A stretch of DNA of 56,084 bases, the filler included, from Porpidia crustulata (lineage: Eukaryota): the NCBI GenBank assembly GCA_964255105.1. It is 5 parts of 5 records of this genome, joined end to end, with 100 filler letters (N's around TTAATTAATTAA, not from the genome) between each part and the next. Parts side by side here need not be neighbours in the genome. Positions count along the whole stretch, not along the records: positions 1 to 11,163 come from CAXUWE010000690.1; 4 more parts are not named here. One strand, 5' to 3'. How positions within the stretch are numbered: the stretch's first letter is position 1; every line of letters begins with the position of its first letter. The position numbers and the translations under genes were made by a program. Below, one piece after another: positions 1-53,300 of the stretch. Below the pieces are notes generated by a model that saw only the letters and a program-made list of their open reading frames with translations, was not told the DNA's origin and did no database searches.

Positions 1-190
1 CTTCTCCGCCTCGGCCATCTTGCCTTGATCCGCGTAGAGAATCCCTAAATTGTTGACCGTGTCCAGCGTTGACGTGTGCTCCGCCCCCCCAGCCGTCTCC
101 CTTCCGTTCAGCGCCCGCATATACATCTTCTTCGCCTCGGCCATCTTGCCTTGATCCGCGTAGAGAAGACCTAGGTTGTGGAGTGCGTCG
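1..190 (-). repeat. 126-bp-period coding tandem repeat (TPR array, partial)
   Basis: 1-41 (cttctccgcctcggccatcttgccttgatccgcgtagagaa) recurs at 127-167 with one mismatch; period 126 nt = 42 aa. Confidence 0.9.
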
Positions 191-2273
191 ACAGCTTCCG
201 CTGATTCAAGCCGATGCAGGCTTTCCAGGTCATCAATCTGCTGTACACATCGATCAACGTGGGGGAGCAATCGCTGCTCCAAAAGCCAGTACTCCGTCTC
301 TGTATGAGTCGGCGCCGCGATGCCTACAATCGTCAGCGCGGCCAGCATTAAGTCATCTTGGCCGTAGCTAATTGTCTCAGTGCACCAGTCATGCACAACC
401 GGATGAATGGAATAGCTTTCCCTATCTCCGTGCGATTCGACGAGCGAGTAGGCCAGTAAGCTCTTCATCACCCTCTTAAAGACGATCTCGCTGCCTGCCA
501 GCTCCTGTAACCAGTCATACTCTTCTTGATAGCCCTCGCGTCCGCGACGGAAGAGCTCATACCAGACATCTTGATGATCCAAGTACCCCCACAGCTGCAT
601 CAACTTCCCCGCCGTCCGGCCGCCCTGTCGTACGTGCTCATAAGAGATCATCCACGTCGTCTGAATGCTCCCATTCTCATAATCCCGTAGGCGAGGTGTC
701 TCGGCCACGAGCTGAGTCCACGAAGATTTATACAGATCTAAGTACTTCGAGCAACCCGTCTTGGTTTCGCACATGTAGGTGCCTGCTTGAACTAGAGCGA
801 GGGGGAGGTAGCCGAGTCGCTGAATAAGGTTTGTCATGTCTGTAAAATATGTTATTAGGTTTGTGTTTCCAGGTTCAGACAGGATCCATATCTTACCGTG
901 GCTGGATGAATGCAGACCCGAGTGATGACTAAGGAGCTTTTGTGCCTGATCCAAATTGAGACCCCCAACTTGCGTTGACTGCCCCATCCCCCTTAGGGAA
1001 GGAAGACGGGTCGTGATTAACACGGAGCCGTGATCAGCTGATGGCAGGAATGATGTGACCTCAAAGGCCTGTGTATCTTCCGTGCTGAATCGGACGTCTC
1101 GATCGACATTGTCGAAGATCATCAGCCATCGATGATTCCCTTCTAGAGCGAGCCATCTCAGCACAGCGGCCGCCTCTGTCTCTATATCGAAATCCTGCTG
1201 TGCTGCATAGGCAGTCGATTCTGAGACACCGTCAACGTCAGCCCGCCTACCGAACGCAGACAGGCTCTGCAAAACCGTATTCCTGCTGTTGCCATTAACC
1301 CATAGGACCGCACTATATGTACGTTGATACTTTCGAGCATGCGCAATCGCCAGCTGAGTCTTTCCGATTCCACCTAGGCCATGAAGGATGTGCATCTTCC
1401 GTTCAGTCTGTGCCTTTGTCGGGAGTAGATATCGTTCCATCGCTTCCATTTCGGGGTCGCGATCGACGAAGTGGCCGGCAACCAGCGGACCCATAAGCTG
1501 GAAATGCACGTGGAAATCATCGCTTTCTGAAAGATGTTGAATCAGCGCTTGCTCGCTGGTCTCATATGTCAACGACTTTCTATAACCCGTACTTTACGCA
1601 CAATGAAACTGTGTCCCTCCTCTTCCAAGGATTTGATTCTTTTTAAGAGCACTCACCCACCTGGTGCAAAGGATGAATTTGCTGGGACATCTTGCACGCC
1701 AGGCGTTTCACGTTGTAAAAGATGCACCTTCATTTCACCTGTCATTTCAAGAGCGGACTTCGCTTGCTCAAAAGCTTCGATATAACTCCTCTGTCCATAC
1801 CCAAGCGCCGTATAGAATTCTCGGGAGAAGTCGATCGCATCTTGGTCCAATATGCTTCCCTCTGACACTATAGCTAGACCAACTGCCTCCGCAAAAGCCT
1901 GCCCTTGATCCAACGAGAAGCAAGCATTGAGTATGACGAGTCGTAGCTCTTTCTGATGGCTCAGCACTTTTGCTAGCGCTTGCTTTTGGACAGGTTTAGC
2001 GGTCCCTTGAACATCTTCAAAATATAGTACATCCTCTCCACCGTGTCCACTAAAGTGTAGTATATGTGGATCGAAGCGATCCAATGCTGCTGTAATATCA
2101 GAATATCGACAGGAAGGTTCATTGAGGACGTTCAGCGACGAGGCAAAGCGTGTTCCACGGATTGCGACCTGTAAGTCTCGATGCTCTTGCGCCAGACGTA
2201 ACCGACCTATATTGCGAGGATCCGATGATAGGATAAGAACCTTTAATGGCCATTGTGGCATAGAATTTTGCAT
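1..2273 (-). CDS. Fungal NLR-like STAND protein: CHAT (caspase/HetF-like) protease + NB-ARC + TPR repeats; 3' end truncated by contig edge
   Basis: Exon 2273-1661 encodes CHAT with HILHFSGHG and LVILNAC motifs. Phase-1 intron 1660-1527. Manual translation of 1526-1 is open: P-loop GLGGIGKT (1380-1357), Walker B WLMIFDNVD, VLITTR, GYLPLAL, SIHPVVHDW, then 42-aa TPRs (NLGLLYADQGKMAEAKKMYMRAL). In-frame intron 896-840. Confidence 0.9.
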
Positions 2274-3702
2274 TGCTGAGAAGGTTCAGGTATATGCCAC
2301 TTCGTAGGTTGTCGTCGTATGTTGTTATGAGGCGAATGCTGCAACCTCCATCACTTTGAACATTCGTTTGATTAGGTAACGTAGATTTTGGTTTGACCTC
2401 AGATCCTAGTCACCTATGCACGATTGTTGTGACGGCAAAGGTATAAGAGACGGCTGGCGACGATTAGAGCGGGGCACGCTATGTTATGGCTGAAGCCTTT
2501 CGCTGTCTCGTGGACAGGACAGGCATTGACAGGTGTAGGACAGAGCTTGGCACGAGTCGTACTTAGTAGATTTCGGTAGCTGAATAGAACGACATCTTCC
2601 ACCCACTTGACTGACCCATAACACGCTAGGTCATCCAAAATAGACTTAACACATATCTATCAAACAGAGGTTCCTATAAAATAAGCCACACTTTGAGTTT
2701 ATATAGTCATAACGTACAATACTGCTAAGAGCATACGATTGCTGTCATGTCCTGTCAGTAGCTGTTGAGTCCTGTCAATCTTATCTTACAGACAGGACAA
2801 GCCTTGGCACTTAAACTTAGCCATTTTCGATATCTTAGTAACTTATACCGTAATTGTATACAGGGTCGCTTTGCACTAGCCCGGCTCGGTAACAGCTGTG
2901 ATCGGAGGTACCGACCAGGATAGCGACCTTGGGCGAATTTACACACGACAGCAGGTACAAAGCATACGAAGACTTTCCCATCATCGTTTCAGTGTTCTAA
3001 AGCTCAAATCAAACTTTTCTAATATGTATCATAGAAAGCAAAGATGTCGTGGTGGTGCAGTAGCGTTTCGCGACAAAAGAAGCCGCCGAGCGGATCAGGC
3101 GAGAACGCGACGATGCAAATGTAATTTATGGGTCGGACAGGTTATCAATGTTTTGCAGTAGCCACAGCACATGATATACACCTAATATTGATCAAGCTCA
3201 AGGTGTGCACAGAGCTTCAGGCGCTTGAAGTCAAAGTACCCATTATATTTTCCGGCACGGGTGGTTTTCCGCCACCCGTGGAGGGACGTTAGGGAGAAAA
3301 CATCGGCCATAACAGGACAGCAAAACCCACCGCAGACCAATACCCGAATCCCATACGACCCGACCAAAACTTAAAGAGTTGACTTCCAAGAACCGCACAG
3401 CCAATCCGAAAACAGGCGTAGATAGCATAGCAATATCACGTCACCACCACCGCTCGTATGGTTCCCTGCACAGTGGATCGAGAACAATGTTGAAAATACT
3501 GTATTCCCTCAAACTCCCCAACCTTCCCCCCCCCCAAGAAACCGAACGAGTAGAACAGTATGCCGCCGGCTAGAAAAGAAAAGAAGTAATTATGGTACAG
3601 CCAAGCCTCTTTAATCCATTCTAATTTCAAACTCATATCTTCTCCGTTCCAAAGACACTCTCACTGCTTCCCTTGTGCTTCCCTTCATTGCTCTTACTCG
3701 TC

Positions 3703-6329
3703 TTACTGCCCATCGCCACTCCCGTCGTAGATCCCCCGGCTGACTTTTGCCGGATTACCCGCCACGACGGTGAATCGCGGAACATCCTATTGGCTTTCAT
3801 CAGTCGAAGAACTGACGACAGAAAGGGAACGCGAAAGACTTACTTGATGCAACAGACTCCCCGCTCCAACCGTGCTGCTCTTGCCCACCCTCACGCCCGC
3901 CAAAATCGTCACGTTGCTACCGATCCAGCAGTCCTCCTCGATGACAATGTTTCTCCCGAGCGCCTGCCCGCCACTGCCCATCCTCCTTCGCGGATCGATC
4001 GGATAAGTAGCGCAGACAAGCTTGACGTTGGGGCTGAAGATGCAACGCGCCCCGATAGTCACGGCGCAGGTGTCTGAGATGCGGCAGTCGGCGCCAATGA
4101 GGACGTCGTCACCGATGGTGATGTTGTAGCCGTAGTCGCAATGAAATGGTGCCTCGACCACGACGCGCTCGCCAACGGTGCCAAAGGGGAGTGGCATGGT
4201 TGGGGCTGGAGGTTCGGCACCGCTTGGCAGGGGCGGTTCGGGCGTGGGGCGCATGCTCATGATCGCTTTGAAAAGACGGGCGCGCTCTTGGGGGCTGGCG
4301 CCATGGGACGGGTTGGTGGCGTTGTTGAATCGCCAGATGGCGGCCATACATTGCTCGCGGTCTTCTGTGAGGGCGGCGCTAAATGGAAGATAGTAATTGC
4401 CTTTGAGCATTTTCTCGCGCTCGGTGAGGTCTTGACGGCGGTGAGGGGATGGACGGAGAGAGGCAGGATGCGAAAGAGCTGTTTGAGCGACGATCTGCGG
4501 ATTGTTGGGATTCGGATTCGACGGATGGGATGACTGTGCCGAGTATTGTGACTGAGAAGAGTTGGTCCGATGCACGGGCGCAGGGGGGTGCATCGAATTC
4601 GGGTCGCTCACTTGATCGTAGGGCGTCTCTTGCATGGAGCTGGGACGATGATCAGTTTCGGGCTGATACTTCGAAATATGTGGAGGATTGCTGGGGTATG
4701 GCCTTGCCGCTTTATTCCATGCGGGCTTCTGGTGGCCATTAGGGGGACTCGGTTGTGCGTACATCGATTCACGTTCCTCATCAACAACAATGGGCTTGCC
4801 TCTGTCTCCTTCCGGACCCATATGATGGTTACGATTAGGAGGTGGACCCGGGTACTCAGGGCTAGTTTCTTGAGCGTATTGGGCTTGGTAGAGCCCGCGG
4901 TGGATTGATGGAGGATAGCCGTTCTTTGCCTGGATTGGCATCGGAGGTTTGGTGCTGGAGGGCTTTTGCCACGTGTTTCGTATTGTGTAGCCTTCACAGA
5001 CAAACCCGCCACGAAGGCAATTATTGCCTATATTTGGTCAGCTAATATGCAAATAACAAAGCGGTCACTAGAAGGACAAGATGTAGCGAGCACGGAGTAT
5101 GGTAAACAATGTCAGAAGCTAGTGAGCCGAGTCATGCAATTGAAATGGACAAAAAGAGTAGCACGGTAACCGCAGGAGATCGCAATAGGCAGCGAACGAG
5201 GAAGTCATGTACCACAATAAATCAAGCAAGGTTAAGAACTCATTATGTACTCACATTCCGGATGCTGCTCGTCGCACTTTTTCTTTCGTCTTCTACAGGT
5301 CATGCATCCTGTCTTGGTTCGATTACTGAAAACTCGCTTTCTGCGCTTCCGCTCGTCCATCGCAGATTGAGAGCTTCGGTTCATACCGTAATCTCCATAC
5401 TGCTGAGCATGCTCGTCTTCCTCTTCTGGACTGACATAGTTCTCGCGCGTAGGCATGGAATCATAATTGCGCAACGCCTGGACCATCCCTGCCTCCGAGT
5501 AGTATGGCTGGTCTCGTTGAGGCGCCAACGTAGGGTCACCGCGAGAGTCGTATTCGTTCCTCACCAATGAATGCCTTTCTGGACGTGGGTACAATTCTGG
5601 TTGATGTCCACGCTCCGGTCGTGGGTACGGATCAGCTGGGTGTACATGCTCGTGTCTAGAATAAGGATCCGGGTGACCACCGTGCTCTGGTCGCGCATAT
5701 GGATCAGAAGGACCAGCTACCTCGGGTCGGGGATAGGTCTCCGGCCGGGCATGGGCATAAGGCTCGACTGGGCTGATCATGTCTGGCTGTCGACCGCTGT
5801 CAGTGTTGTATATTCTCTGTCGGTCAGAGCTCAGCGGCATTTCATGGCTGTGGTACGCAGTTCCGTTAGAATTCTCGGTGGCCTCTGGGAAGGACCGTTT
5901 CCTCTTCCTCGGGCTACCATTGGCGGTCCTGGACGGCTGGCTATTTGGTGTCTCAGGATGGCTGCCGTAACGATGTTTAGCTTCATCAGAGTTTTCTCGA
6001 CGATGAGGAGTTTGACTTGGGCGATCAACTACCGGATTAGCAGCCGGAGACGGTCCACGTTCCGTGTGCGTGAATGCGTCAAGCTGGCGTGAAGGGCTTT
6101 GAGATTTTTGTCGTTCTTGCTGAATGTTTGGTCGAGCAGTCCGAGGATTGGGCTCATCACCAGCTTCCTTTGAGGATTCGTTTGGGGTTTCTTGAGCCGA
6201 CTTTGACTTTGCTGGTGGTGTTGTAGCAGCACCGTTGACGGCAGTGAATGATGGGCCGGACTCGGCAAATTGTTCGGTTTCGACCCCTCCTGGAGCCTCG
6301 GATCTGTGATTCGAGGCAATTGTTGCCAT
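3703..6329 (-). CDS. Zn(II)2Cys6 binuclear cluster protein fused to a maltose/galactoside O-acetyltransferase (hexapeptide-repeat, LacA/NodL-like) domain
   Basis: Exons 6329-5255, 5027-3844, 3786-3703. Spliced product has RTKTGCMTCRRRKKKCDEQHPECNNCLRGGFVCEGY and, C-terminally, TEREKMLKG..PFHCDYGYNITIG..IEEDCWIGSNVTILAGVRVG..DVPRFTVVAGNPAK. Confidence 0.9.
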
Positions 6330-7239
6330 ACCTGTCGACTTCAATAGATCGAAAATACTCTGACTGATGGACCTTGGCGCGATAGCCGCTATATCGAATT
6401 ATTTCCTCCCGCGAGTTACCGAAAGAGAAGTAACTTTCAAATCGTTACGGTCCCGATAGAGTCGTAATATATTTATAACACTTTGAGTAGAGAGTACTGA
6501 TCCAAGTCGATACAAAACGGAAGATTTATTATCCTTGGTCGGCGGCTTATACTTGGGTGATAACGTCGGGAAAAGGATCGTTGAGAAGTGGGGGATTATT
6601 AATGGATTGGGAGGGGGGAAGGAGACGGTTGCGAGTAGGTAGAGTAGGCAAGATATTGATAGTAATGAGGAACGCTTGGTGAATGAGGGAGTCGTCTGTC
6701 GCCTCGGTTATATTATTACTGCGCGCCTCTCGATCCTGATCTTATTCTTGTTGCTCAACAAGGATGCTACGAGAAGCGGCTGGAAGCTACGCAGTAATGA
6801 TAATGCGCACGAAGACTCAGCAATCTATCAGTAGCATGGGTTAGTGATCCTGTATGGAGCACGTTGGAAAGATAAGGAGGAGGGATGAGCGAGGAGGGAA
6901 GAAGGAGGGCAAGTTCAGATTTGGCGCAAAAGGCGGAGGGCGGCTGAGCAAATTGCTCTACACGCCGTGTCTCTCGACTCCATCCATGATCCGGGCTCAT
7001 TTTCACTCGGCCCACGCGATTCGGCTGGTGTGACGAGTGAGAGTCAGAGGAACATGACCAGGGGGTCTCATTGGCTGCTTCCGAAAGGGCGCTTAGTTTC
7101 TTCAGGCATGTAAGTTGCAGGCTGCGTGTTGCAAGTTCCAAGCAACCCTAACGCCTTTGAGTGCCTAACACCCTACCGTGCCTAGGTACCAAAGTGATCC
7201 CTACCCACGGTTCCCTCGTCCAGCCCCTCGAGTCACTGT

Positions 7240-7283
7240 GGGAATTTGGGGAATTTGGGGAATTTGGGGAATTTGGGGAATTT
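7240..7283 (+). repeat. (GGGGAATTT)n 9-bp tandem repeat, ~5 copies; G-quadruplex consensus
   Basis: gggaatttggggaatttggggaatttggggaatttggggaattt read directly. Confidence 0.9.
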
Positions 7284-9244
7284 AGCAAAAAGGAACAAGG
7301 GGGACGATTTGATTGTTTGATCTTTCATGCCGCACAACGAAGAAGCTTCGATGTGCTTGGGTCCTTCTGAAGTTCTGTCTATCCCAATGGCGGTAACTCC
7401 AAGATTTCTGACGAATCATCTGACTAGCTAAGCTGCGACTACTACGTCAAATAGACTATCGCGTTCCGTGAAGATTGCTCGCACCTCAAGCACAGACATG
7501 ACGAGCGGCAAAATTATCATGGCTCGACTAAAGCTCTGCGCTGGGAGATGATGGGTGAGAGCTACTGGTGTTGGCTTGACACATTCCACACCTGCATACC
7601 TAGTTGTACGTCGACATCTCACATGCTGCAAACTTGCAGAGTTCAGGCTAAAGCACAATTCTGCCATTCGGTTGGTGGGCGCTGCGCAGTCAGGAAGCAT
7701 CCATGCGTTGCGTAACCATCGACCTAACCAGTACAGTAAGGAATCCTTTAGAATTACCGAAATTCCAATGGTGACACCAAGACATGGCACAAGCTAATTT
7801 AGCCAAGTATCTAACAAATTATATTTACCGGAACCGAGCCCCAACTGCCATGATGCAGGATTATTATTGGCCCATTCCCAGAAAACGTCTTTGGGTCTGG
7901 GAGAAGACTATTGCGCTTTGGCCGTTGGGCCCCCTCTTCAGCTGTATGACCTTAAGCCTTGTATCCAGTAAACACCACCCAGTGCACCAGATGGATCCTT
8001 GCTATCTCACCCGTCTAATCATGACTGCAAGTTGCCCGACGCTAAACCATCATCGCGCGCATGAGGCTTCCGCGATCGCATACCTGCGCTCTGCGGCCAC
8101 TGATGGAGATGTACCGTATCCACCCGACCATACTCTTCTCCAATGGACTAAGTACGCAGCATCGTGACATTCATAACGGCTGAGGTGCCTCGGCTCGAGA
8201 GTATCATCTCCGAAGAAGTTTCAAACAGCCACTGTTCCTGGATAACACATGCGTTAATCTTTGTCGCAAATAATGGGCAAGGTCGCCGATAGCATTCAAG
8301 GAATAGCGAGGCATATCTCATGGCACAGCGATAAGGCGTCTGTATTGGAAGCTTCCAACCATGAGACGGGGGACAGCAATCCTTCGCTCATTTCCGACGA
8401 CCCTCCGTCAGACTCAGGCCTCAGGTAGCCCGCCTTTTCTCTACCCGGAGCCAGAGAGCAGAAGCGTTTTTAGGCGGATGATGCAGATGCAGTGTGTCAG
8501 CAAACATCCTGGTCATCCTCGAGAAGCGACGCCGCGTGTTCCCGCTACACTTTCGCCAAGCCAAACCGATCACTTGTATCGGTTGCTTGCGGACACACGG
8601 AATGCTACAATAACATTACAACAGTCACAACGTTGGCAAGAGTCTGCCAACACTGACGCCGCGCGTACTAGTAGATATGTGCAACGTGTCCATTTTGGGA
8701 AAAGGACGCGACGGGCGCGGATGTGTGAAGGATGCACTTAATCATAATTTGATCCGGATTGGATTCGAAACTAACAAGACTTGGATCCCTGCCCGCCAGA
8801 ACGAAGCCATCATGGGCTCACAGGCTTACATGTGAACCCTAGCAAGTAGGAAGTTTGTGGGCCTTGATGGTGGCCGTCGCGGCAAGGTGATTGGCTGCCG
8901 CAGCTTTGGCTAGTCTCGCGAGTCTTGCTTCCCCCAACCCTTAAACTCTCCAAAGAATCCAGGCGCTTGTTGCGAGTCAAAAATGGCTTACAGCTTCCGC
9001 CTCGCGCTACGCCGAATCCTTCGAAACTTAAACGATGTAATTACGGAGACCGACAATCGCCATCCAACTCTTCCCTCGCGGCTGTAAGCGCTGATAAACA
9101 GCGAGGCATGTCTGTCGGCCATGAAGGATTGCATTACAGTTTACAAAGGACACGTCAGTCGTGCTCCAGGATCAGTGAGGCACAGGGACCGTCATGTTGG
9201 CTTGATTTCTGATGCATGAGATATCCATACAACAGCCAGATTGG

Positions 9245-9288
9245 CCACTGAGACATGTGTCATGGCCCACTGAGACGTGTGTCATGGC
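9245..9288 (+). repeat. 22-bp tandem duplication (2 copies, 1 mismatch)
   Basis: ccactgagacatgtgtcatggc followed by ccactgagacgtgtgtcatggc. Confidence 0.9.
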
Positions 9289-10388
9289 AGCCTCTGAAAC
9301 GGCTGAGCTAAACAAACACAACTTCTATATAAGGAAATCACGTACAGTGGCTATACTTAATCCACTCACTTGAACGGTGCAATCATTACCACAAATCAAA
9401 TGCAACAGCAGAGTCAGCCGAACAGGATGACGGTCTGCCTGTATACGCGGCAAAATTCAGTCAAGTCGACGCTTTGTCAGCACACAAATAGGAATTCAAA
9501 TTACTTCTTTACACAAGACCGCAGGACTTCCAGGCATCCGATGAGGCGTTCGGATGGGATCTGGCTTTTGTTCGCTGACGTTTCGCATGCCTAAATGAAC
9601 GAGGCTTGAGGTTGAACCGTACCTTTCCGGGGTTCACGTCTCCCTTTCACTCAACGTTTCCGCAATCAACACTTTTCAGATGATCTTCAATTCATTGTTA
9701 CGATGCTCAAAGCTCAAGGAAGCTCGGTGGGTCCAACCCAGTTGTCTCACATGTAGAGTTTTCGAAGCACAACAGCTCGCCTTCGAACCACAGCATAATC
9801 TATTTTCTCTGCATCGGTCGTCATAGCGATGTCATGTTACAAAATAGCGCTGATATCCCATCATCTGCGTGACTGTTGTATCAAGAACCAATTCCATATC
9901 TTTATGAAATACATTCTCGAGTGATCCGTTAGTCCGATGTGGTATTAAAACTCTACACCCATCGAGTATGAAATACCGACTGAAGACTTCACGAAGTGCA
10001 TGCAACTTACACAGTACTTCCACATATTAAGCCTCTCATCGACTCTACAACAGAATTATTCGTAATTTCGAGGAGGTGACGCCGTCAGGTACATACGCGT
10101 AGAGTAATTATCTCCTAACGCCGGGCCGCCGCAGGCCATAGCCCTACTGTTCTACCACCACCATCCATCCTCAAGTATGATGACTGTGATTCTGTTGCAC
10201 CAGGTCTAGTCGCACAATGGTGATTTGCTCCAACTTGACAGCTCTGCCAAGGAGGCCTCGTCTTGCCTGTGCGCATCATGCACCCACAGAAAGGGAGACT
10301 GTCTAGCAATGGGCTCTTGGCCCTCGCCGGGTCAAGTTCGAGGGCCCATAGCTCATGCCGACGCAATGCCCATATTACGCTATCTCCG

Positions 10389-11163: not shown

Positions 11164-11263
11164 NNNNNNNNNNNNNNNNNNNNNNNNNNNNNNNNNNNNN
11201 NNNNNNNTTAATTAATTAANNNNNNNNNNNNNNNNNNNNNNNNNNNNNNNNNNNNNNNNNNNN
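11164..11263. other. Artificial contig linker (N44-TTAATTAATTAA-N44)
   Basis: 100 bp, six-frame stop spacer flanked by Ns; genes on both sides are cut mid-CDS. Confidence 0.98.
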
Positions 11264-22420: not shown

Positions 22421-22520
22421 NNNNNNNNNNNNNNNNNNNNNNNNNNNNNNNNNNNNNNNNNNNNTTAATTAATTAANNNNNNNNNNNNNNNNNNNNNNNN
22501 NNNNNNNNNNNNNNNNNNNN
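22421..22520. other. Artificial contig linker
   Basis: N44-TTAATTAATTAA-N44. Confidence 0.98.
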
Positions 22521-24248: not shown

Positions 24249-26540
24249 TTAGAAGCTGGTTTCCCTTCTTCGTTTAGACGTCGACTCTTCTGCTCCCTCA
24301 TCCCTACACCTCTTCTTTCCCCTCGTCAGCGGCCCTGCCAGCAGGTCCTCTGGCTCAGGCATCTCCACCCTTACAACCCATCTTCTCTGCCTCTTTCGTG
24401 GTCTCTCGTGCTCTGTTGAAGATCCTTCATCCAAGTCAAGCTTGTTAGCCCTTTCCAATGCCCTCTTTCTTTTCGCGGCGAGTGCTCGCTTTGCCTTTGA
24501 GGCGTCGCTAGCCTTTGGATTCAGATACGTGTACTTCACTATATCTCCCATGTGAAATTCGAGCATGGTTTTAGTATCTCGCTCGAGACGCCTCATTTTT
24601 GCCGTTTTGGGTTCAACCCTAAGTTTCATATCTGAGAGACCGTGTGTTAAAGTGCCCTCGTGCTTGCGGTTGGGCGCGTCGTAGCGTGGATAATTCCTAG
24701 GTACATTGTCCCCTTTGCACTCCTTGATAAACCTTTCTGCCCAATCGACTTCCTCTCGCGAGCTTAGCGCCATGGGATTGTGTTCTTTAGGTTCTTTACG
24801 GAGTTTGCGATTATCGGGGCGGATCATGAGATCTTTACAGATTTCAGGGAAATCGAGGAATCTCTCGAGGCAGTCCAAATGAACGTAGCCGGCGTTCCAG
24901 TGAGGATCAATATCCTTATTCTTAAGAGATTGCTGATCGAAAGCGACCCGATATTGGCCACTGGCGATTAATTTTCCATCTGCAGGACAGTCAATGAAAC
25001 GACAGCGCTGGGATAGATGGTTGGGATAGCGATGACCAGAGTCTCCAGGCTTACGTTGAATCCAGAGGATGAGGCCCTTTCTTTGATGTTGAGGGTTGGT
25101 GTACAGAAATCTATGAATCTCCTCTGGGGAGTAGAATTCTTCAGGCTCGAGTTCGCCATATTGAGTATATTTAAAGATGTCCCATGATTTCGGCGGTCTT
25201 GCGAGAGGAGGATAGTGCTCTTCTGGATTGAATTCGAGGATTTTTTTCGTGCGAGCGCTGATCTTGTAGTTTGGATTCGCTGCGAGAGCCTTGGCAATTT
25301 TCTCCTCCGCGTCCCCTTTGTATATGCGATAATAATTCGAAGCTAGGCTTTTCGGCAATTTGGGTTTGGGGTGCTCGAGTCTATCAATGACGGGCTGCAT
25401 TGAGGACGATCTCGATGAGCCTCCGCAGTCTGGCGAAACTTGTTCTCGTGCTGAAGGTCGAAGTTGCTCAACATCTGGTTCAGCTAATGTGAGCTGCGTA
25501 GTATTGACATTCTGGAAATACTCTGGTGAGTCTTGCGTTCTATGCATAGGTCGTGAAACTCGCGGAAATGGTGGCTGCGCAGCCTGTGCGGGGAAGCCTC
25601 TAGACAACGGAATTGGAACCCACTTCGGGATATCATTCACTTGAACATGCAGTTCCGGGGCGTGCGGTCTGGTTTCTCTCGGGGTCTGCATGGGTTGTAG
25701 GTTGGAGTTGTGTAGAAGAGGGTAAGAAGACTGACCTATTTGACTAGGTACCCTGAATATGTCATCTGACACGCAAGGCAACGAAGGGTACACTTCAGCG
25801 TCGGCGGTATAGGAATGCTGCTGAACGGGTGGCATTTGGAATGGGATCATATTACTCACAGATACGAACTGGTCAGTGTTAGCCTGTGGTATCGTATTGA
25901 AGTCCATAGCCTCGAAAGTATCGTCCAATAACGGAAATGTAGCGGACGGCCCAAAGAGCAGGTCGAGCATTTCTGGCGAAAAATCAGGCACCATGAATGA
26001 AGGATCGTCCGTTACTTGGACAGCTTCCTGGGGAATCTCAAAGCTTCCACCTTGCGGTACAAAGCCGCTTGGTGGAGTCAAGCCTTCTTGAAACGTTTCC
26101 ATTGCTGGTGCGAAGAGCTGGTCCAACATTGATGGCGATATGTTAGCTATGTCCTCGAAATTGTTTTCGAGAGGTCGATACTCAGACTCATCTATGTCTT
26201 GGTTTGTCTTGGCCATGTGGCCTGGTACTTCGATGGAACCGCCAACAGTAGGATATGCTGCGCCGATTTCCATATCCATTGATTGATCATTCAATAGACC
26301 GGTATAGCCTCCAGAGTAAGTCTGTCGGTTCATTTCGTCAATTTCCCTGTCCATCCGCTCCAATGTACTTGGAGTGCTTGGCGGCGAAGTCGTCTGTTCG
26401 GGCACTCGTTCACTCGCTTCTTGATTGTGTGGCTGCCGAGTCTCTGGAACATTCATTATATATGAGAAAGAATCTTCATATATAGCCGGCGAAATGACTT
26501 TGTTGCTTTTGTTCGTATGCTGCTTGTTCATTCCCGTCAT
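24249..26540 (-). CDS. Hypothetical ~760-aa protein: acidic/P-rich N-terminal half, globular Cys/His-containing C-terminal domain, basic NLS-like tail; start uncertain
   Basis: Uninterrupted ORF of 2.7 kb. The region upstream of about 26540 looks non-coding. LWIQRKPGDSGHRYP..CRFIDCP..RVAFDQ..NAGYVHLDCLERFLDFPEIC. Confidence 0.7.
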   Translation of the reverse strand: MTGMNKQHTNKSNKVISPAIYEDSFSYIMNVPETRQPHNQEASERVPEQTTSPPSTPSTLERMDREIDEMNRQTYSGGYTGLLNDQSMDMEIGAAYPTVGGSIEVPGHMAKTNQDIDESEYRPLENNFEDIANISPSMLDQLFAPAMETFQEGLTPPSGFVPQGGSFEIPQEAVQVTDDPSFMVPDFSPEMLDLLFGPSATFPLLDDTFEAMDFNTIPQANTDQFVSVSNMIPFQMPPVQQHSYTADAEVYPSLPCVSDDIFRVPSQIGQSSYPLLHNSNLQPMQTPRETRPHAPELHVQVNDIPKWVPIPLSRGFPAQAAQPPFPRVSRPMHRTQDSPEYFQNVNTTQLTLAEPDVEQLRPSAREQVSPDCGGSSRSSSMQPVIDRLEHPKPKLPKSLASNYYRIYKGDAEEKIAKALAANPNYKISARTKKILEFNPEEHYPPLARPPKSWDIFKYTQYGELEPEEFYSPEEIHRFLYTNPQHQRKGLILWIQRKPGDSGHRYPNHLSQRCRFIDCPADGKLIASGQYRVAFDQQSLKNKDIDPHWNAGYVHLDCLERFLDFPEICKDLMIRPDNRKLRKEPKEHNPMALSSREEVDWAERFIKECKGDNVPRNYPRYDAPNRKHEGTLTHGLSDMKLRVEPKTAKMRRLERDTKTMLEFHMGDIVKYTYLNPKASDASKAKRALAAKRKRALERANKLDLDEGSSTEHERPRKRQRRWVVRVEMPEPEDLLAGPLTRGKKRCRDEGAEESTSKRRRETSF

Positions 26541-28430
26541 ATTGAGCTCAAGTTTGGCTAGTATGTAGAGTAAAATTATTGTTCTTGGCCCCAAAATCGA
26601 CGGGTCAGTGTCGTCGATATACAACATGACTGTTCCTTGATACAAGCTTCTCTTTGTCCTTCGATCATCAGGCTTTGTTGGGAGGATTGTCTTGCGTCGA
26701 ACAATTAAGAAAGCAGTAACAATGCATTGAAGCTTGACAAAGAGGCGTGACATGATTGCTTTGTATTGAAAATTGTAGAGCGTTATCGCTTTGTTGGACC
26801 TCGAGACAACGAGCATTATGAAAAAGAGACTAAGAAATGGCATACTAGGAGACCGTGATTTTGGAATCATGCAGTTTTCACTTAAGTTTCTTGCCAAATG
26901 GAAAGAGTGAGCTTTTAAACGAGAGAGCGTATCCGGTGAACGTATTTCTAGGTGAGATGTGGACATATGACACGACATGGATGCTCGGCATACTACCGAC
27001 GATTCTGTTGACACAGGTACCTGATGGATGGAAAATCACACGAGCCAAGTGACGCTCAACTGCTTGTATTTCGCTTCTAGGTATTTGTATGGAGGCGATT
27101 AAGAAAAGCGTCAGAAGAAGCCTTGACTGCAGGCTTTTCGGGTTTGCAAGTACCGAGTTGATGTTCATAAGTCAACTCTCGACCTAGCATTACATTGGGC
27201 CCTAGGTTTGATGCAATTGTCAATATAAGTTCCCTAATGTGTACATGCAGCAGCGTTTATATAGAATGGGTTGATTCTTGTCAGAAGGTCTCCAAGATAA
27301 GAGATGTCCACATTGAATTTCAGAACAGGTCTGTGATAATTCATATGATTTTCATCAGGAGGATCGATATATATATAGCCATGGAAAGAAATAGAATAGA
27401 ACTCACTTCAAGTCCGAATTCAATGTGGGCCTTCGGAATAGCGCTTCGTTGATAGAGACATTGGTGATAATCATGGACAGCTGGCGAAAGGCCGACTAAG
27501 CGGGTATCATGGATAGATCATCCGCTTAAATACGATCGAGTGTCCCACATTGATCCCCACATCATGTAGCGCTTGAGGGACTACTAGCATAATGATCGTC
27601 GAGTAGCACTTGTGGAACGACTTACTTGCTCTCGGCATTGGCGGTGTCGTTGTTGTAAGTCAAACTTCCTGTCATTCGCGGGTCCCTCGTCCCTTGGCTC
27701 TGATATGTCAATCGAGGGTTTAACTCGAAGGCTGATTCTGGAGGATTTGTCCGTCATTGAGTAAGACTTCACGATTCCTAGCATCATAGTCGGTGGACAA
27801 AGAGGTAGTAGAGACGGCGTAAGACACCAAGATCGTGAGGATTGGATGATTGGAATTTCGTCAACATCTTTCATTTTCTTTTCAATCACATTTAGTGTGA
27901 TGCCAATGTACAACAATGATATGTTCCAAGTTCGACTGCACATGAAATGCTGTCAGGTAATTGTGATCGTCGTGTCGTTGAGCGGTCATCGAATTGGAAT
28001 CCTCTCCATGAGCCCTGCATGTAGATCTTGATATTTGATCTTGTGCTCTGAGTATATCTTATTGTAACTGCTCCCCAAGTCATAGCTCAGAAACGGGACG
28101 CCTATCAAAGCACAATGGTGGATGCATGTGTTCAGTTTTTCTGGCGTTGATGGAAGAAATGCTAGCGTGAGCCTAAAGTGCGGCGTTACTCTACACTAGC
28201 CACACCTTAAATCCGAGAAGCGCTGCGGTGGTACGAGGCAAAGGCGTCCAAATGGTTCTCCAGTCAATACGGCAAGGCAATTGTCCACGCGTTCCAATGC
28301 CCACTATGGTATGCTTCACTTATCGTCGATCGATCTGACTCGCATGAACACTATTTGAGGTCGGCCTGGCGAACAGTGGAGCCTGCTGGCAAGCCTGCGC
28401 CATCCAGTCTTTCCTGTGCACACTCAAAGA

Positions 28431-33676: not shown

Positions 33677-33776
33677 NNNNNNNNNNNNNNNNNNNNNNNN
33701 NNNNNNNNNNNNNNNNNNNNTTAATTAATTAANNNNNNNNNNNNNNNNNNNNNNNNNNNNNNNNNNNNNNNNNNNN
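33677..33776. other. Artificial contig linker
   Basis: N44-TTAATTAATTAA-N44. Confidence 0.98.
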
Positions 33777-44886: not shown

Positions 44887-44986
44887 NNNNNNNNNNNNNN
44901 NNNNNNNNNNNNNNNNNNNNNNNNNNNNNNTTAATTAATTAANNNNNNNNNNNNNNNNNNNNNNNNNNNNNNNNNNNNNNNNNNNN
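44887..44986. other. Artificial contig linker
   Basis: N44-TTAATTAATTAA-N44. Confidence 0.98.
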
Positions 44987-45815: not shown

Positions 45816-47948
45816 TCAAGGCGGCGTTATCTCTTCGGTGAAACGAGAGCCTCGTGAACCGTCGAAACTGGGATGACTTCGACCGACGCCATCCCTTGGA
45901 ACTGGACTGGCGCCAGGTCCAGGCAACGGGCGAGGAGGTGGAGTACCCCTTCCAGTCGCCGGAGGTGGTCGTAAAGAGGGAATGACTCCAGGCTGGTTGG
46001 TTACCGGAGTGCGGGCTGGACCAGGCCTCATAAATGCGACTTCCTCGTCTCTCCGAGCTTGACTCCCTGCACGGGCCAGAGGAGACGTGCTGCCAAGTGC
46101 GGGACCAAAGCGATCTGGTGACCGAGGTGGAGGAGATTCAGGTCTGCCATACATTGACGACGGGTTCGAACTCGGTTCAGGCTCGGGCGCTCCACCGTAA
46201 AAGCCTTGCGAGTCACGATAAAAGGAGGTTTCGGACAGAGGGGTCTGTGGACTGGCGGGACGAAGACCAGCAGCCACAGGCGCAGCACCAAAGCCAGGAG
46301 TGGGACGACTTGGACCACCACTGCCATAAGGATCGGGATTACCGAAACCATCACCACCGTGCTCAAGCACCGATTGGATTTTTCTACCGCCAAAGTTCTG
46401 GAAGCCACGCTCACTGGGTGCAGTTTCCGTGGTCGCTGCAGTGGCACTGGAACGAGGTCTTATACGCTTGAAGATACCCGCGGCGGCAAATGGGACATTG
46501 CTTGATCGCTCCGTTACTGTTCCACTTGGGGCCCCACTGGTGGGAGGAATCGACTGAGTCATGGGTTGTGAAATATTTCTTCCGCCTGCCACCTTCCTCC
46601 GCCGCCAGCGGATGAAGGCCAGAATAAGTAGGAGGATTATGGTGAGGCCAGCGACTCCTCCTACAACACCACCCACAACGGATGGGGTAGATGGAGTACT
46701 GCTACTACTATTACCGGATCCAGCTCCTGCGCCTGATGTCGATGAAGGAGTCGAACCGTTCGAAGTACCAGTAGCGCCACCTATACCGCCAGGTACGATA
46801 CCAGCACCGGATGTAGTGCTGACAGAGCTTGATGATGACGTGGGAGAGGAAGCCGAAGAAGTAGATGAGCTACTTATGGTGGAGGAAGTAGTCTGAGAAT
46901 TGGTACTGGAGATTGTCCCAGTCCCACTGCTTGACGACGTCCTCGTAGATGTGAGGAGAGTAGAGTTTGACATTGTTGCAAAAGTCAGAGAAGTTAGGCC
47001 CTTAGACCCTGTGCTCGTCTCTGAGGATGTCACAGCTAACGAACCGTCAATTTGATTAAATCGTCAAAAAAGTTCACAAAACTTACAGGTCATAGTGGAA
47101 TTAGTCGTGGACATTGGAGAGCTAGGATTCGTCGCGGTTGGATTAAGGCTTGAGATACTTGATGTATGAGTAGAAGACGATGCCGATGACGCACTCGAAG
47201 AGAGTGAGAAATAGGAGGTAGTTGATGTACTACCGATAGCACTAGTAGATGACGTTGAACTCGAAGGGCTTGAGGGTACAGGTGTAGCAGGAGGTGAGGA
47301 TAATATAAATTGGGAGCTTGAACCAGGCACGCTGATGGTCATTGGGCTCTGGCTTGGCACGGAGTTTGTTGACGCGGCAGAACTTGCTGGCGATGCTTCA
47401 ATACTTCGCGACGATGGTTGCTCTGTGGGCGTCGGTGTCGTTTGCTGCGTGGGTTGCGATGGTTGATCTGACGCGATGGAAGGAGAGGAGCTCTCATGTT
47501 GAGGGGGTGGCAGTGAGAACGACGTCGGCGATGCTGCGTTAGAAGCCAAGGTGAGAGGACCGTAACCGTCGAAAGTGAAGACACTGGATTGAGCAGGTAC
47601 AAGCACATCTCCAACGGGAGTACCCGCAGGATTATCAACAATGACTCGCACCACTGATTCAACCGCGGTACTGACTGGTTGAGCAACTTGGGAGACCGGT
47701 GCGGGGGGTATTTGACGTGGTTGGATCTCCTGGTACTTGTCGGTAGGAAGCTCTGAGGATATGAGATCTTCTTCTGCTGAAGCTTCGTGCTGGTTGTCAT
47801 ACCGAGTTGGAGCGTCAATTTCTAGGCTCTTATCTTCGGTTGATAAAGCGATAATGGCCTCTGGCTCTTGAAGAAAATCCGTAAAGCTGCGATGTGCCCC
47901 ACGCAGTCCTCTCTGGTGTAGGCGCCTTCTCTTGGAGGGTCGTTCCAT
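45816..47948 (-). CDS. Ser/Thr-rich single-pass membrane protein (Mid2/Wsc-like layout)
   Basis: Exons 47948-47087 and 47035-45816; long S/T tract, TM VVGGVVGGVAGLTIILLLILAFI followed by RWRRRK, P/G-rich tail ending SRGSRFTEEITPP. Confidence 0.75.
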
Positions 47949-49965
47949 TAGACCTTATGATGATGTTCCGTACCAATGTTTCTATATGATGGGATATGGT
48001 CCCGGTTGCGATGAGACAATTAAGATGAGCAATCTATGCGATGCTTCTAATTAAGCTGTTGATAGTGAATTGGCTCCACGTTTTTGGCGGAGCATTAATC
48101 CGGCGATAACACACTAATCTGAATTAATACGATGGCCCTGAGCCCGAAGAGAAGCGGTTCGTAACGACTGAAGTTGTGTTCTTAGGAAAAGATGACGGGA
48201 CGACGTCTTTGTGCGGACGTTTTTCGCTCTTTGCGATCGAAGATCAGCTTCGACAGCGTATGAATGTTGCGACTCAATGAGTGGACGTCAGTCAAGCGAC
48301 TGACGGGATTAGATTGTCGTAAAACCTGCACGGGTCGATCAGTACCCAAATGTGGTCGCCAGCCAATCGCCAGAACCGGGGTTCTCTTACTGTTGCTTAA
48401 GCTCGCATTCTGTGAGAGATGCAGCGTGTTCAGACAGAAGCCGATAATGTTGTAGTATTATTGATGCGGTAACGAGTGTGTGCTGTATGCTGTTGAAAAA
48501 GTTGATGTTATCGAAGCATCCGCACCACCCCCTGGGCAATGCGACAGTAAATTTGTGCGACCGGTGGTAGATGCTGCTGTGTATACTGGTGCCCTTCCTG
48601 TTTTCCCTGGCACTCTCCAGCACCTCAATCCTCTCTCTTCTTTGCGAACACCACCGACAGCGTGAGCTGAGAGGCTTCACCACTGAGTCGCAATCCACAT
48701 TTGACAGTAGAAAAAGAAAAGATAGGGAGGACAAGCGGGATGAGATTGGAGGAGGATGGAGGTACAAGCGCTGTGATCGACAGCTAGCCGGAAAGCGTTA
48801 GCTGCCAAACCGCTAGGGTTCGAAGATGAAATTGCGAAATTATCACCGACTGCACTCTACCAGTAGTCGCAGTCATGTTCTATCTAGACGACTTAGTGCA
48901 TGAACAAAGACATAGTTATTAATAGATCAATCCAGTACAATGTACAGTAATTACGGATGCATTTGTATTATTATTGTTGCTCGTGATCATCATTGATATC
49001 ATTGTCATATCAATCCATTGCTAAATCACCCTGTTTGGTTGTGAAGAGACTGGTGACAGTGAGGGTGGACACTAAAGTAGCACGTGCCAGGCAGAATAAT
49101 CCATACCGCAAATATTGATCTTTCGCTCACATCATCAAATTTACTGTTGCATCTGTAGAGCACATCATCTGAACGCTACAAAGTCAAGTAATGATGAACG
49201 TCAAATGTAAGATTGAAACAACACGCTGTCAGATCACATAGATACATCGAAAAATCTTCTTGAAACAATCAAAATCTGATTTATATTGATGGAAGTCGAG
49301 TTTTGCGGCATGGATTTTTTTGCCTGGCACGTGAGTAATACTACTCGATACGAATAGCCTCAGATCCTTTCCCCTGAGCGAACCTCGGAAGAAGCAAAGT
49401 TGACTGGTGAGCCGCACTCTTATGCAGGTCCCGGCCGTCCAATAATGCGCCATCGTGCCTGAATGACGCTTGGGGCTAGGGGGCCACAAAGGGGGCCGTC
49501 CAGCCGCGGTTTGATTGCGCACACTCCTGAGAACTTGACAGTCGAGTCTACTTCAATCCGTAGTACAATTTGCGCTTCAACGAATATCCAATGTCAGTAC
49601 GAGCGTGCCATCATGGTCATATGATTAAGCCGCGTACGAATTCCCAATGTCTAAGCTTCCTTTCACGCCGAAACATACAACCTACAATGTGTGCCCACAA
49701 GCTCGTGCCACGGTGGAACCAGATTGGCGTCTTGCAGTGCCATTAGGTTAAAGCAAGAGAATTTGGTGACAAAGACGTACTTTGCCGATACAGCTGATAT
49801 CGAGCGGTGCTCAAGTTCACCGTAGAACGAATGTAGATGCAAAGCTAGTTGAGAAATATAGAATTGTATGCTTTGTTCTGAGTTCTCCTAGCTACGCAAG
49901 CTATGAGGACCTATGTAGTCGCGACTTTGTGGATTGAAAAATCTCGGAGGGAAGCTCATTTGCTT

Positions 49966-52615: not shown

Positions 52616-53300
52616 ATGAACGTTACGGTCTGCGTTGGCCACAATGTATTTCTGAGCTCGGGTTATGAATGTTGGGGTGGGGAGTAAGCATGGAGGCCTA
52701 AAGGGTAAGGGCACGGAGGTTATGGGAGACCGATGGACTAGATCTTGAACAGGATAAGCGCTACTGCTTGACACAGCACGGCCCGGTCACCAACGCCGTA
52801 CACTAATATTTCGGAAAATCGGTAAGCAGTAAGGTACCAAGCTCTGATTACTAGTATCAATGTATCTATCAAGATAAATTACATAGTAATATCCTCAGCT
52901 ATTGACTTCACCTTCCCTAGGTATTAAGCGGTCTTGGCTAATTCTTAGTTGGGTCGAATTTAGAATGTTGGATTTCATCAATTCTTTGAGGTTATCCAGA
53001 TCAAGCTGCCTGTGCCGGCTAAATCTATGTAATGTTAGGACTGATAATAAAGGTGATGTATGTGATGGTGAATCTTACGAGATGATTTCCTTGCTTACGA
53101 AGGATAAGTGGGACGATTTAGAGCTATGTATCGGCCAGTGACCCATCTCAAACACTCTTCTACTCGCAAACGCCTCTGGTGTTGAGTTGAATTGTCATTA
53201 CAAGCGACGAACATCACGAGATTTGAATCACCACTCGAGCTTAAGAGGGTTAGCCGAATGACCATCGGGCCACCCGCCCGCATTTTCACTTACATTCATA

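Follow-up and report, generated by a model that had tools for sequence, protein, structure and literature searches.

Gene layout, splicing and the models of relatives

Our study reports on a gene of the fungus Porpidia crustulata that lies on the minus strand at the start of a 56,084-nucleotide stretch of DNA, the whole of which is referred to here as the window. The ATG is at 2273-2271, and the frame that it opens reaches a TGA at 1655-1653, giving an ORF of 206 residues that encodes a CHAT protease domain. The first-pass annotation had joined this ORF, through a phase-1 intron at 1660-1527, to an NB-ARC frame running to the contig edge, and these coordinates were confirmed on the sequence; it had missed a second intron (896-840), which is seen both in the sequence and in an RNA contig. 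The features of the gene are as follows.

1661..2273, minus strand: exon 1, with the start codon and the whole compact CHAT domain (residues 1-204 and the first base of codon 205)
2043..2045, minus strand: codon of His77, predicted catalytic, in HFSGHG (2057-2040)
1920..1922, minus strand: codon of Cys118, predicted catalytic, in LNAC (1931-1920)
1527..1660, minus strand: intron 1, 134 nt, phase 1, GTGGGT...CTGAT...TCAG, containing the in-frame TGA
897..1526, minus strand: exon 2, with a linker and the N-terminal part of NB-ARC, including the presumed Walker A motif GLGGIGKT (1380-1357)
840..896, minus strand: intron 2, 57 nt, in frame, GTAAGA...CTAAT...ACAG
1..839, minus strand: exon 3, with GYLPLAL, a DUF7779-like helical/winged-helix part and TPR_10/TPR_12 repeats (about 189-4), open at the first base of the window

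Intron 1 is bordered by GT at 1660-1659 and AG at 1528-1527, with a branch-like CTGAT some 15 nt before the AG, and its position coincides with the junction between the CHAT domain and the NB-ARC-TPR part. The last base of exon 1, a G at 1661, joins AA at 1526-1525 to make a GAA codon, and the frame reads ...SSFAP-E-SDDFHVHF... across the boundary. Intron 2 is hidden in an open frame because it is itself in frame; its 19 would-be residues are less conserved than the flanking sequence when compared with P0003, a gene model from Dirinaria sp. On translation all three exons are open, with no lesion in the catalytic dyad or in the NTPase motifs.

RNA evidence comes from metatranscriptome contigs of related organisms, not from P. 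crustulata itself, in runs labeled X15 (poly(A)) and X20. RNA across 1660-1527, which the first-pass annotation had named as a check, bears out the intron: a 768-nt X15 contig joins 1526 to 1661 exactly, skipping 134 nt with CT..AC on the plus strand, and with an identity of about 89% it must come from a relative. In a second X15 contig, which spans 1320-1748 at about 93% identity, intron 1 is still present; this may point to a CHAT product of 206 aa that stands alone, or to DNA carried over into the RNA library. In an X20 contig (about 93% identical) a single letter separates 839 from 898, the equivalent of removing 896-840 and substituting position 897. Among 40 listed differences in the relatives' RNA (with 183 further), 12 of the 17 exonic ones fall on third codon positions.

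The public gene models of relatives bring up an alternative that we consider improbable, namely that two genes lie here, one for a 206-aa CHAT protein that ends at the TGA, the other for an NB-ARC-TPR protein with a shortened N-terminus, whose translation begins at an internal Met. The models seem to speak for it, as does the contig that keeps intron 1: 19 cluster representatives, 201-249 aa long and sharing 76-92% identity with the whole CHAT exon, are given as free-standing CHAT proteins; many NB-ARC relatives begin at or near a Met matching residue 26 of the exon-2 frame; and CHAT is present in the gene model of 0 of the 119 other NB-ARC relatives among the matches listed, at least one of which is a split annotation. 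However, 14 of the 19 short CHAT models stop two residues past the exon 1 boundary, inside the intron, and the residues beyond the boundary differ between relatives (GG, GV, GR, or 20-45 unrelated residues); this variability of length and content is as expected of an intron, and the splice in the X15 contig falls precisely on the predicted GT..AG. Several short models have the segment 'L(T/I)QHL(L/S)E' ahead of NB-ARC, and on our reading of the sequences it corresponds to the branch site and 3' splice signal of the intron. P0003, moreover, is a fused model of 747 aa, 86% identical over CHAT and 81% over NB-ARC. In Squamulea squamosa a 206-aa CHAT protein (Q9213_001136, P0304) and a 725-aa NB-ARC-TPR protein (Q9213_001137, P0017) have consecutive locus tags, and a contig of 191,996 nt is given for each. 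Judged from these sequences, the gene is conserved across many lichen-forming fungi; a metagenome scan with the CHAT protein gave 212 pattern matches, 0 of them confirmed.

A caspase-like protease domain on an NB-ARC-TPR body

The profile search that the first-pass annotation had suggested places CHAT, NB-ARC, TPR_10 and TPR_12 above their Pfam gathering cut-offs. The CHAT match (PF12770) is borderline, at 28.8 bits against a cut-off of 24 over residues 25-175, and P0003, 86% identical, has no Pfam CHAT row at E up to 0.001. The domain begins at about residue 10 after the Met and forms a compact module of about 190 aa. In an alignment of 74 CHAT sequences (A1), H73, H77, N116 and C118 are nearly invariant, and the profile of this alignment has one sequence match in the PDB, 8tl0 (E 7e-39), with the GHG and NAC motifs aligned. 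His77 and Cys118 fall on the GHG histidine and the NAC cysteine of 8tl0, in agreement with the earlier claim of an intact dyad. The catalytic dyad of SAVED-CHAT is given as H375/C422 in the available text of the preprint (Steens et al., bioRxiv 10.1101/2023.06.23.546230), and we infer an offset of 20 residues between the chain index of 8tl0 and this published numbering. All 22 lichen NLR-type CHAT sequences keep HFSGHG, and 21 of them keep the Cys; together with the third-position differences noted above, this speaks for selection on the gene.

The CHAT domain is predicted to adopt a caspase-like alpha/beta fold in a confident AlphaFold model (pLDDT 93.4, pTM 0.88). Foldseek searches with this model rank 8tl0 at the top (TMq 0.78, E 3e-15, 27-28% identity), followed by caspases 6 and 7 and CED-3 (TMq 0.5-0.63). 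A homodimer prediction for CHAT scored 0.00; run without controls, it weighs neither way. No SAVED domain was matched by Pfam in the gene, and the resemblance to SAVED-CHAT is confined to the CHAT module.

In the remainder of the gene, Pfam finds NB-ARC (PF00931) at 26.6 bits (cut-off 23.5), TPR_12 at 47.8 bits (cut-off 30.1) and TPR_10 at 43.3 bits (cut-off 27.5), with AAA_16 at 27.5 bits, under its cut-off of 32.6. The translation contains GLGGIGKT, LMIFDNVD, LITTR and GYLPLAL; we take the first to be Walker A, the second Walker B-like and the last a motif of the GLPL type. The P-loop, Walker B-like, GYLPLAL and TPR elements of the earlier motif set hold up, while its winged-helix part is represented only by a DUF7779 match of 25.3 bits, under the cut-off of 27. 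Two TPR units of 63 nt, spaced by 126 nt and 86% identical at the DNA level, are visible before the window edge cuts the array at these two units; ortholog models extend past this edge by 34 aa (P0003) and by about 260 aa with seven TPR_10 matches (P0017). The very high RNA depth at 1-240 consists of many short contigs lying over the TPR repeat and is no measure of expression. Identity over the NB-ARC-TPR part is 35-39% with the PNP_UDP- and patatin-NLRs of Aspergillus and Penicillium and reaches 50-56% with lichen NLRs that carry other N-termini (P0026, whose N-terminus matches DUF676 at 19.6 bits, just below the cut-off of 20.3, and P0028, whose N-terminus has no Pfam match). By sequence the body is of an ordinary fungal type.

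Origin, proposed mechanism and alternatives

Trees of CHAT sequences were built with FastTree (267 rows) and with IQ-TREE in quick mode (93 rows). The NLR-type CHATs form one clade with support of 100 in both, and this clade is nested within an all-fungal-type clade of 68 rows (support 99, FastTree) or 51 rows (SH-aLRT 99, IQ-TREE) into which none of the prokaryote-genome rows fall (0 of 79 and 0 of 28, respectively). Most of the fungal rows were called so by clade and shared architecture, the named ones being only Dirinaria, Squamulea, Thelotrema and Aulographum. The likeness to bacterial modules noted in the first-pass annotation stands in so far as the domain belongs to a compact, mostly bacterial CHAT subfamily, but its nearest relatives are fungal (44-58% identity, against 32-41% for bacterial copies). 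Of the 110 CHAT representatives nearest to it, 101 are recognized by the Pfam CHAT profile; partner domains include TIR_2 (4), TRADD-like_N (3), AAA_16 (3) and NB-ARC (1), with one each of EAD8/9/10 and bDLD3. Recent transfer of the whole gene from bacteria was rejected, since an NB-ARC-like stretch occurs in only 3 of the best 80 bacterial CHAT loci, 24-26% identical to that in the window, and the CHAT lies in the fungal clade. We propose instead that the compact CHAT module of a fungal 'helical N-domain + CHAT' family became the first exon of an ordinary fungal NB-ARC-TPR receptor. A tblastn search with 148 proteins found neither a second CHAT nor the helical N-domain of this paralog family elsewhere in the window, and Foldseek with a 358-aa model gave only CHAT/caspase matches and low-TM noise for the fold of that N-domain.

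A single polypeptide with an N-terminal, dyad-intact CHAT domain, an NB-ARC NTPase and TPR repeats is supported by the Pfam matches, the alignment with 8tl0, the fold model, the spliced RNA of relatives and the fused model P0003, and the single-chain architecture of the first-pass annotation is upheld. Taken together with the mechanism and origin proposed here, we think it likely that a fungal NOD-like receptor of CHAT/NB-ARC/TPR type is the product of one three-exon gene, which runs on the minus strand from 2273 to beyond position 1 and is interrupted by introns at 1660-1527 and 896-840. By analogy with STAND/NLR proteins and the SAVED-CHAT filament, the ligand-free TPR repeats would keep the receptor inactive; binding of a ligand to them would lead to nucleotide exchange in NB-ARC and to oligomerization, bringing the N-terminal CHAT domains together as active proteases, which could then cut a separate downstream protein and so set off a defense or cell-death response. 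Protease activity, activation through oligomerization and any link to a gasdermin are thus suggested by analogy.

No substrate candidate was recognized in the 54 kb on the 5' side of the gene, the side that the window covers; among 34 open frames of at least 110 aa between 2274 and 56084 Pfam, which may miss fungal gasdermins, found no gasdermin or HeLo-type family, in keeping with the earlier statement that no substrate gene is recognizable upstream, and in 11 unassigned frames it gave no gasdermin match at E up to 1, with the same reservation about fungal gasdermins. It is possible, if unlikely, that the receptor is as described but acts in a HET-Q2-like manner, its CHAT removing the inhibitory C-terminus of a HET-Q1/RCD-1-type gasdermin encoded past the window edge or elsewhere. 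The 3' side of the gene lies outside the window, and the accessible portions of the literature offer precedents: of 1,884 fungal gasdermins, 353 (19%) have a CHAT protease gene no more than 10 kb away, a CHAT domain from Podospora cuts the gasdermin encoded beside it, and Dataset S2 contains Fusarium rows described as 'CHAT | C-ter P-loop_NTPase' (Clavé et al., 2022, PMC8851545). The absence of a gasdermin family match in the 34 frames tells against this, as do the CHATs in the available part of Dataset S2, which are either C-terminal after a long TPR region (two rows) or, in Fusarium, much longer (PMC8851545), and the fact that SAVED-CHAT, the only sequence match of this CHAT among solved structures, is described in the available preprint text as cutting a protease and not a gasdermin. 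A more specific scenario, which we regard as doubtful, is that in an NLR clade found here only in lichen-forming fungi an NB-ARC-TPR receptor captured a SAVED-CHAT-like protease of the 'helical N-domain + CHAT' family as its first exon and directs it to a non-gasdermin target, either some other protein or a second protease, as SAVED-CHAT does PCaspase. If so, a symbiotic fungus would possess a receptor-driven proteolytic cascade, and split models together with a borderline Pfam score may explain its absence from automated NLR counts. That the copy is decaying or non-catalytic, with a CHAT that acts only as a decoy or adaptor, or that the gene is a pseudogene cut short within its TPR array, is very improbable: degenerate relatives do exist (P0212 with HFSERG; P0172, a 135-aa fragment with HLSGHG; P0314 with Ser in place of the Cys) and the gene's end is outside the window, but the three open exons, the intact motifs, the 76-92% identity to the 19 relatives over the full CHAT exon and the transcription and splicing of relatives argue against it.

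Comparison with known systems

Fungal NLRs with an N-terminal CHAT have already been described, and the present gene adds an example but no new principle. In the text available to us, fungal NLRs are listed with CHAT among their N-terminal effector domains (Clavé et al., 2022 PNAS, PMC8851545; Daskalov, 2023 iScience, PMC10197012), and 'dozens' of CHAT-bearing NLR-like proteins adjoining gasdermins are published (PMC8851545; PMC10197012; Wojciechowski et al., 2022, PMC9815663). These receptors, including the HET-Q2-like ones, share with our gene, so far as those portions describe them, the tripartite plan of N-terminal protease, central P-loop NOD and C-terminal repeats, and also the idea of a 'contracted' pathway in which a caspase-like protease is part of the receptor. 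In the Fusarium rows of the available dataset, however, 118-201 residues precede much longer CHAT segments, whereas here a compact CHAT starts at about residue 10; the HET-Q2-like genes described there have a gasdermin neighbor, whereas here Pfam recognized none within 54 kb on one side. The published fungal CHAT-NLRs also differ from the present clade in that the latter comes from lichen-forming fungi and is mostly split in public models. A limited search of the lichen-specific literature yielded nothing on a lichen CHAT-NLR, which does not prove its absence. To the fungal NLR catalog we thus add, from lichen-forming fungi, a receptor with a built-in caspase-like protease, transcript-supported through the RNA of relatives. 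In the public models considered, annotation usually treats the CHAT exon as a protein of its own, about 206 aa long, and leaves the receptor N-terminally short; since the Pfam score is borderline too, counts of CHAT-NLRs in these fungi are probably underestimates.

Fungal NB-ARC-TPR NLR classes with PNP_UDP, patatin or DUF676/sesB-like N-termini (Dyrka et al., 2014, as summarized in the available text of PMC9815663) have the same body of NB-ARC, DUF7779 and TPR_10/12, but their effector is a phosphorylase, lipase or esterase where the present gene has a CHAT protease. Bacterial STAND/NLR-like conflict systems with CHAT effectors, in which effector-associated domains and bacterial death-like domains occur, follow the same logic of an NTPase switch coupled to a protease effector; in the best 80 bacterial CHAT loci the CHAT is 32-41% identical to that of the window, and only the three loci noted above have an NB-ARC-like stretch.

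The SAVED-CHAT of the Haliangium ochraceum type III-B CRISPR/CBASS hybrid system (8tl0) belongs to the same compact CHAT subfamily and has an aligned His/Cys dyad. Its PCaspase substrate and CRISPR context have no counterpart seen here, and its sensor, in the preprint text available, is a SAVED domain at the N-terminus, which takes up cA3 as ligand and assembles into filaments, whereas here the sensor would be the C-terminal NB-ARC-TPR part. The same portion of the preprint describes 8tl0 as the cA3-activated filament and the protease as switched on by sensor-driven oligomerization (bioRxiv 10.1101/2023.06.23.546230). The solved SAVED-CHAT structure thus provides both a structural template for the present CHAT and, in oligomerization, an idea of how it may be activated.

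Gene structure and splicing evidence for a fused CHAT receptor

The first-pass annotation had proposed that a minus-strand CHAT exon of the window continues across an intron into an NB-ARC-TPR body. Our analysis confirms this observation, and the reading of these parts as one receptor is supported as regards structure, its function being putative:

2273 to 1655-1653, minus strand: open frame of 206 codons, from the ATG at 2273 to a TGA
ending at 1661, minus strand: exon 1, closing on the first base of a codon, with GTGGGT coming next
1660-1527, minus strand: intron 1, with a GTGGGT start, a TCAG end and a CTGAT branch-like site before the TCAG
896-840, minus strand: intron 2, 57 nt, GTAAGA..ACAG, in frame

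Joining 1661 to 1526 yields a GAA codon and keeps the frame into a long open frame at 1524-1 (P0002), which is uninterrupted because intron 2 is itself in frame. The proposed intron at 1660-1527 thus fits the sequence and joins the frames; the second, at 896-840, had been overlooked. In profile searches the exon-1 protein (P0001, the first 204 residues) scores 28.8 bits for Pfam CHAT (cut-off 24), with Peptidase_C25 and Peptidase_C14 as weaker matches below threshold, and the P0002 frame matches NB-ARC at 26.6 bits (cut-off 23.5), TPR_12 at 47.8 bits and TPR_10 at 43.3 bits, with a DUF7779 match of 25.3 bits under the 27-bit cut-off. The P0002 translation contains the motifs GLGGIGKT, LMIFDNVD, LITTR and GYLPLAL. 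Pfam recognition of this compact CHAT is borderline; a short CHAT model from Squamulea squamosa (P0304) scores 29.4 bits, whereas full-length P0003 (86% identical) returns no Pfam CHAT match within an E limit of 0.001, and PF12770 is absent from its precomputed list too.

Four coded sequencing runs were compared with window positions 1-2400. A 768-nt contig from a poly(A) metatranscriptome (X15) aligns to 1244-1526 and then to 1661-2137, leaving out precisely the 134 bases between, as expected for removal of intron 1; it differs from the window at 87 letters (~89% identical), and its source is therefore a related organism. A second X15 contig (1320-1748, ~93% identical) speaks against this, since it still contains intron 1; it may be unspliced precursor RNA, DNA left in the RNA library or a genuine retained-intron transcript. 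In a 173-nt contig from X20, 839 is joined to 898 with one letter between, the outcome that loss of 896-840 together with a single-base change at 897 would give. An orthologue lies on a 22.9-kb DNA contig of run X2 (~94% identical, 133 to 2364).

Gene models of relatives bear on whether this is one gene or two. The 747-aa P0003 from Dirinaria sp. is a fused CHAT-NB-ARC-TPR model, with 86% identity in the CHAT and 81% in the NB-ARC part. A protein search also returned 19 cluster representatives, 201-249 aa long and 76-92% identical to exon 1; 14 of these end two residues past the exon boundary (GG, GV, GR or SG), the pattern of the 206-aa frame in the window, and the remaining five carry 15-45 further unrelated residues. 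In S. squamosa the short model P0304 is Q9213_001136, and Q9213_001137 (P0017) is a 725-aa NB-ARC-TPR protein, 74% identical, each reported on a 191,996-nt contig; this pair and the short models indicate that public annotation usually splits the gene in two. These short models speak strongly for an intron at the exon-1 boundary, but are no demonstration of a free-standing CHAT. Directly before the NB-ARC start, several truncated NB-ARC models carry a translated L(T/I)QHL(L/S)E; the corresponding stretch in the window is the intron-1 branch site with its 3' splice signal, and we read it in those models as intron taken for coding sequence.

The protease domain and its probable origin

In an alignment of 74 CHAT sequences (A1), H73, F74, G76, H77, G78, N116 and C118 are near-invariant, and the coordinates that the first-pass annotation gave for the His and Cys motifs all proved correct when read against the window. 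The A1 profile has a single match among PDB sequences, residues 284-468 of 8tl0 chain A (E 7e-39), the cA3-bound SAVED-CHAT filament of Haliangium ochraceum, whose dyad is reported as H375/C422 (Steens et al., bioRxiv 10.1101/2023.06.23.546230). If a 20-residue offset is assumed, these are chain positions 355 and 402, the GHG His and NAC Cys that align with H77 and C118 of the window. An AlphaFold model of P0001 (pLDDT 93.4, pTM 0.88) placed five 8tl0 chains on top in Foldseek (TMq 0.77-0.78, 27-28% identity), followed by caspases 6 and 7 and CED-3 (TMq 0.5-0.63). HFSGHG is present in all 22 NLR-type CHATs from the lichen clade and the catalytic Cys in 21, P0314 having Ser. Among CHAT-exon relatives, P0212 has HFSERG at the HFSGHG position, and P0172 is a fragment of 135 aa in which the N-terminal part corresponds, in another frame, to the 5' flank at 2340-2218 of the window; together with P0314, these degenerate sequences indicate that some copies in relatives are decaying.

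The compact CHAT had been thought to resemble bacterial modules. This holds in part, in that the nearest ESM Atlas clusters are bacterial CHAT proteins of ~200 aa, most commonly from Cyanobacteriota. Pfam CHAT is found in 101 of the 110 nearest representatives, and their partner domains (TIR_2 in 4, TRADD-like_N in 3, AAA_16 in 3, Peptidase_C14 in 2, and NB-ARC, EAD8, EAD9, EAD10 and bDLD3 in one each) are of bacterial conflict-system types. A full HMMER search with P0001 against 1.84 billion representatives found 15,261 proteins at E<=0.001, 6,922 at <=1e-10 and 47 at <=1e-30. The top relatives are fungal, however: beyond the NLR clade, the closest, at 44-58% identity, are proteins of ~350-415 aa in which an all-helical domain is followed by a CHAT at the C-terminus (members come from Thelotrema lepadinum, Aulographum hederae and Letrouitia subvulpina), whereas the best 80 of at least 593 confirmed prokaryote relatives, from many phyla and often cyanobacteria, are 32-41% identical.

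Phylogenetic analysis likewise placed the CHAT within a fungal-type clade. In a FastTree of 267 CHAT rows the 22 NLR-type sequences form one clade (support 100), nested in a 68-row clade (support 99) with 32 N-domain proteins and 14 other representatives and with none of the 79 prokaryote-genome rows. A quick IQ-TREE of 93 rows (8 of the 22 NLR-type, 43 other fungal-type, 28 of the 79 prokaryote and 14 further rows drawn at random, with P0196, P0241, P0182 and P0277 left out) agrees, with support of 100 for the NLR clade, 96 for the surrounding 24-row fungal set and an SH-aLRT of 99 for all 51 fungal-type rows as one clade; both trees are unrooted, and support values from the 'quick' mode deserve less trust than bootstraps. 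Phylogeny and gene structure together lead us to infer that fungi already had a compact CHAT, which then became fused to a fungal NB-ARC-TPR body, intron 1 marking the seam.

The helical N-domain and CHAT family, the sister stock of the NLR CHAT exon, lies outside the window (P0004, P0137, P0140, P0141 and P0283-P0295, alignment A3). Its members share a conserved N-domain with a start motif like GAGILGNL.Y, and some end in a hydrophobic, transmembrane-like tail. A model of the family reached pLDDT 89.7, and Foldseek named no fold for its helical N-domain.

The NB-ARC-TPR part behaves as an ordinary fungal NLR body. Its 607 matches are led by lichen-forming fungi (Squamulea, Gyalolechia, Caloplaca, Xanthoria, Psora and Sticta; 50-80% identity), followed by PNP_UDP- and patatin-NLRs of Aspergillus, Penicillium and others (33-39%); against 80 bacterial CHAT loci, the window NB-ARC found only 24-26% matches, in three loci. 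Two lichen relatives carry other N-termini, that of P0026 matching DUF676 slightly below cut-off and that of P0028 giving no Pfam match. TPR units are near-identical in DNA (86% identity between 1-63 and 127-189, units spaced 126 nt apart), Logan contigs of the best DNA match (X1) and of the orthologue (X2) both end at ~133-137, and hundreds of short contigs from RNA runs stack on 1-240; the window edge at 1 is probably an assembly break within the repeat array. TPR length differs strongly among orthologue models, with 34 residues more in P0003 and ~260 more in P0017.

Genomic neighborhood

Pfam was run on 34 open frames of at least 110 aa in the rest of the window, and identified:

Zn-cluster/Mac acetyltransferase
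malonyl-transferase-like acyltransferase
transaldolase
isochorismatase
Tudor-SN
Cu/Zn SOD
DIP2-like AMP-binding protein
KilA-N/ankyrin protein
NmrA-like and saccharopine-dehydrogenase-like proteins

Judged by these matches, these are housekeeping-type genes. No gasdermin, HeLo or similar family was found in the 34 frames, and relaxing the limit to E of 1 for 11 unassigned frames brought up none either, in searches where Pfam may miss fungal gasdermins and which cover the 5' side of the gene, its 3' side lying beyond the window; this bears out the earlier remark that no substrate gene is recognizable upstream.

The upstream neighbor (3787-6398, minus strand) seems to be one gene in two open frames, with a Zn(2)-Cys(6) cluster at its N-terminal end (5232-6398) and, at 3787-5037, a Mac_assoc match of 26.2 bits (slightly under the 26.6 cut-off), a Mac capping motif and a hexapeptide acetyltransferase. 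Over ~4 kb at 6400-10300, GC is ordinary (0.45-0.53) and no open frame or Pfam match is convincing; the stretch may be a long spacer between genes, a gene with many introns or the remains of an element. Pfam, at E up to 0.001, matched none of three long minus-strand frames or frame pairs, at 24249-27035 (928 aa), 45816-47954 (415+296 aa) and 50105-52786 (893 aa). N runs occur as four pairs of 44 bases, 12 bases apart within a pair, every ~11.2 kb (11164-11207, 11220-11263, 22421-22464, 22477-22520, 33677-33720, 33733-33776, 44887-44930 and 44943-44986); they break open frames, for example at 11211, and their regular spacing looks like masking or tiling, not biology.

Model of activity and comparison with known systems

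By analogy with SAVED-CHAT, which is activated by filament formation (Steens et al., bioRxiv 10.1101/2023.06.23.546230), the protein may act as a receptor that senses, oligomerizes and cleaves. The TPR repeats would sense a ligand, upon which the NB-ARC would oligomerize; the clustered CHAT domains would then become active and could cleave a separate effector.

Wojciechowski et al. 2022 (PMC9815663) include CHAT (PF12770) in their list of 19 N-terminal NLR domains, and 19% of fungal gasdermins are located near CHAT proteases (Clavé et al. 2022, PMC8851545). Dataset S2 of the latter study includes Fusarium rows labeled 'CHAT | P-loop_NTPase'; the word NB-ARC is absent from it because clan names are used. 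Taken together, these sources make CHAT-bearing fungal NLRs a known kind. A literature search on lichen CHAT-NLRs found nothing specific. Particular to this gene are the absence of a recognizable gasdermin neighbor on the visible side, the systematic split annotation, the spread across lichen-forming fungi, the probable origin of the CHAT within a fungal CHAT family and the placement of a compact SAVED-CHAT-like module directly at the N-terminus.
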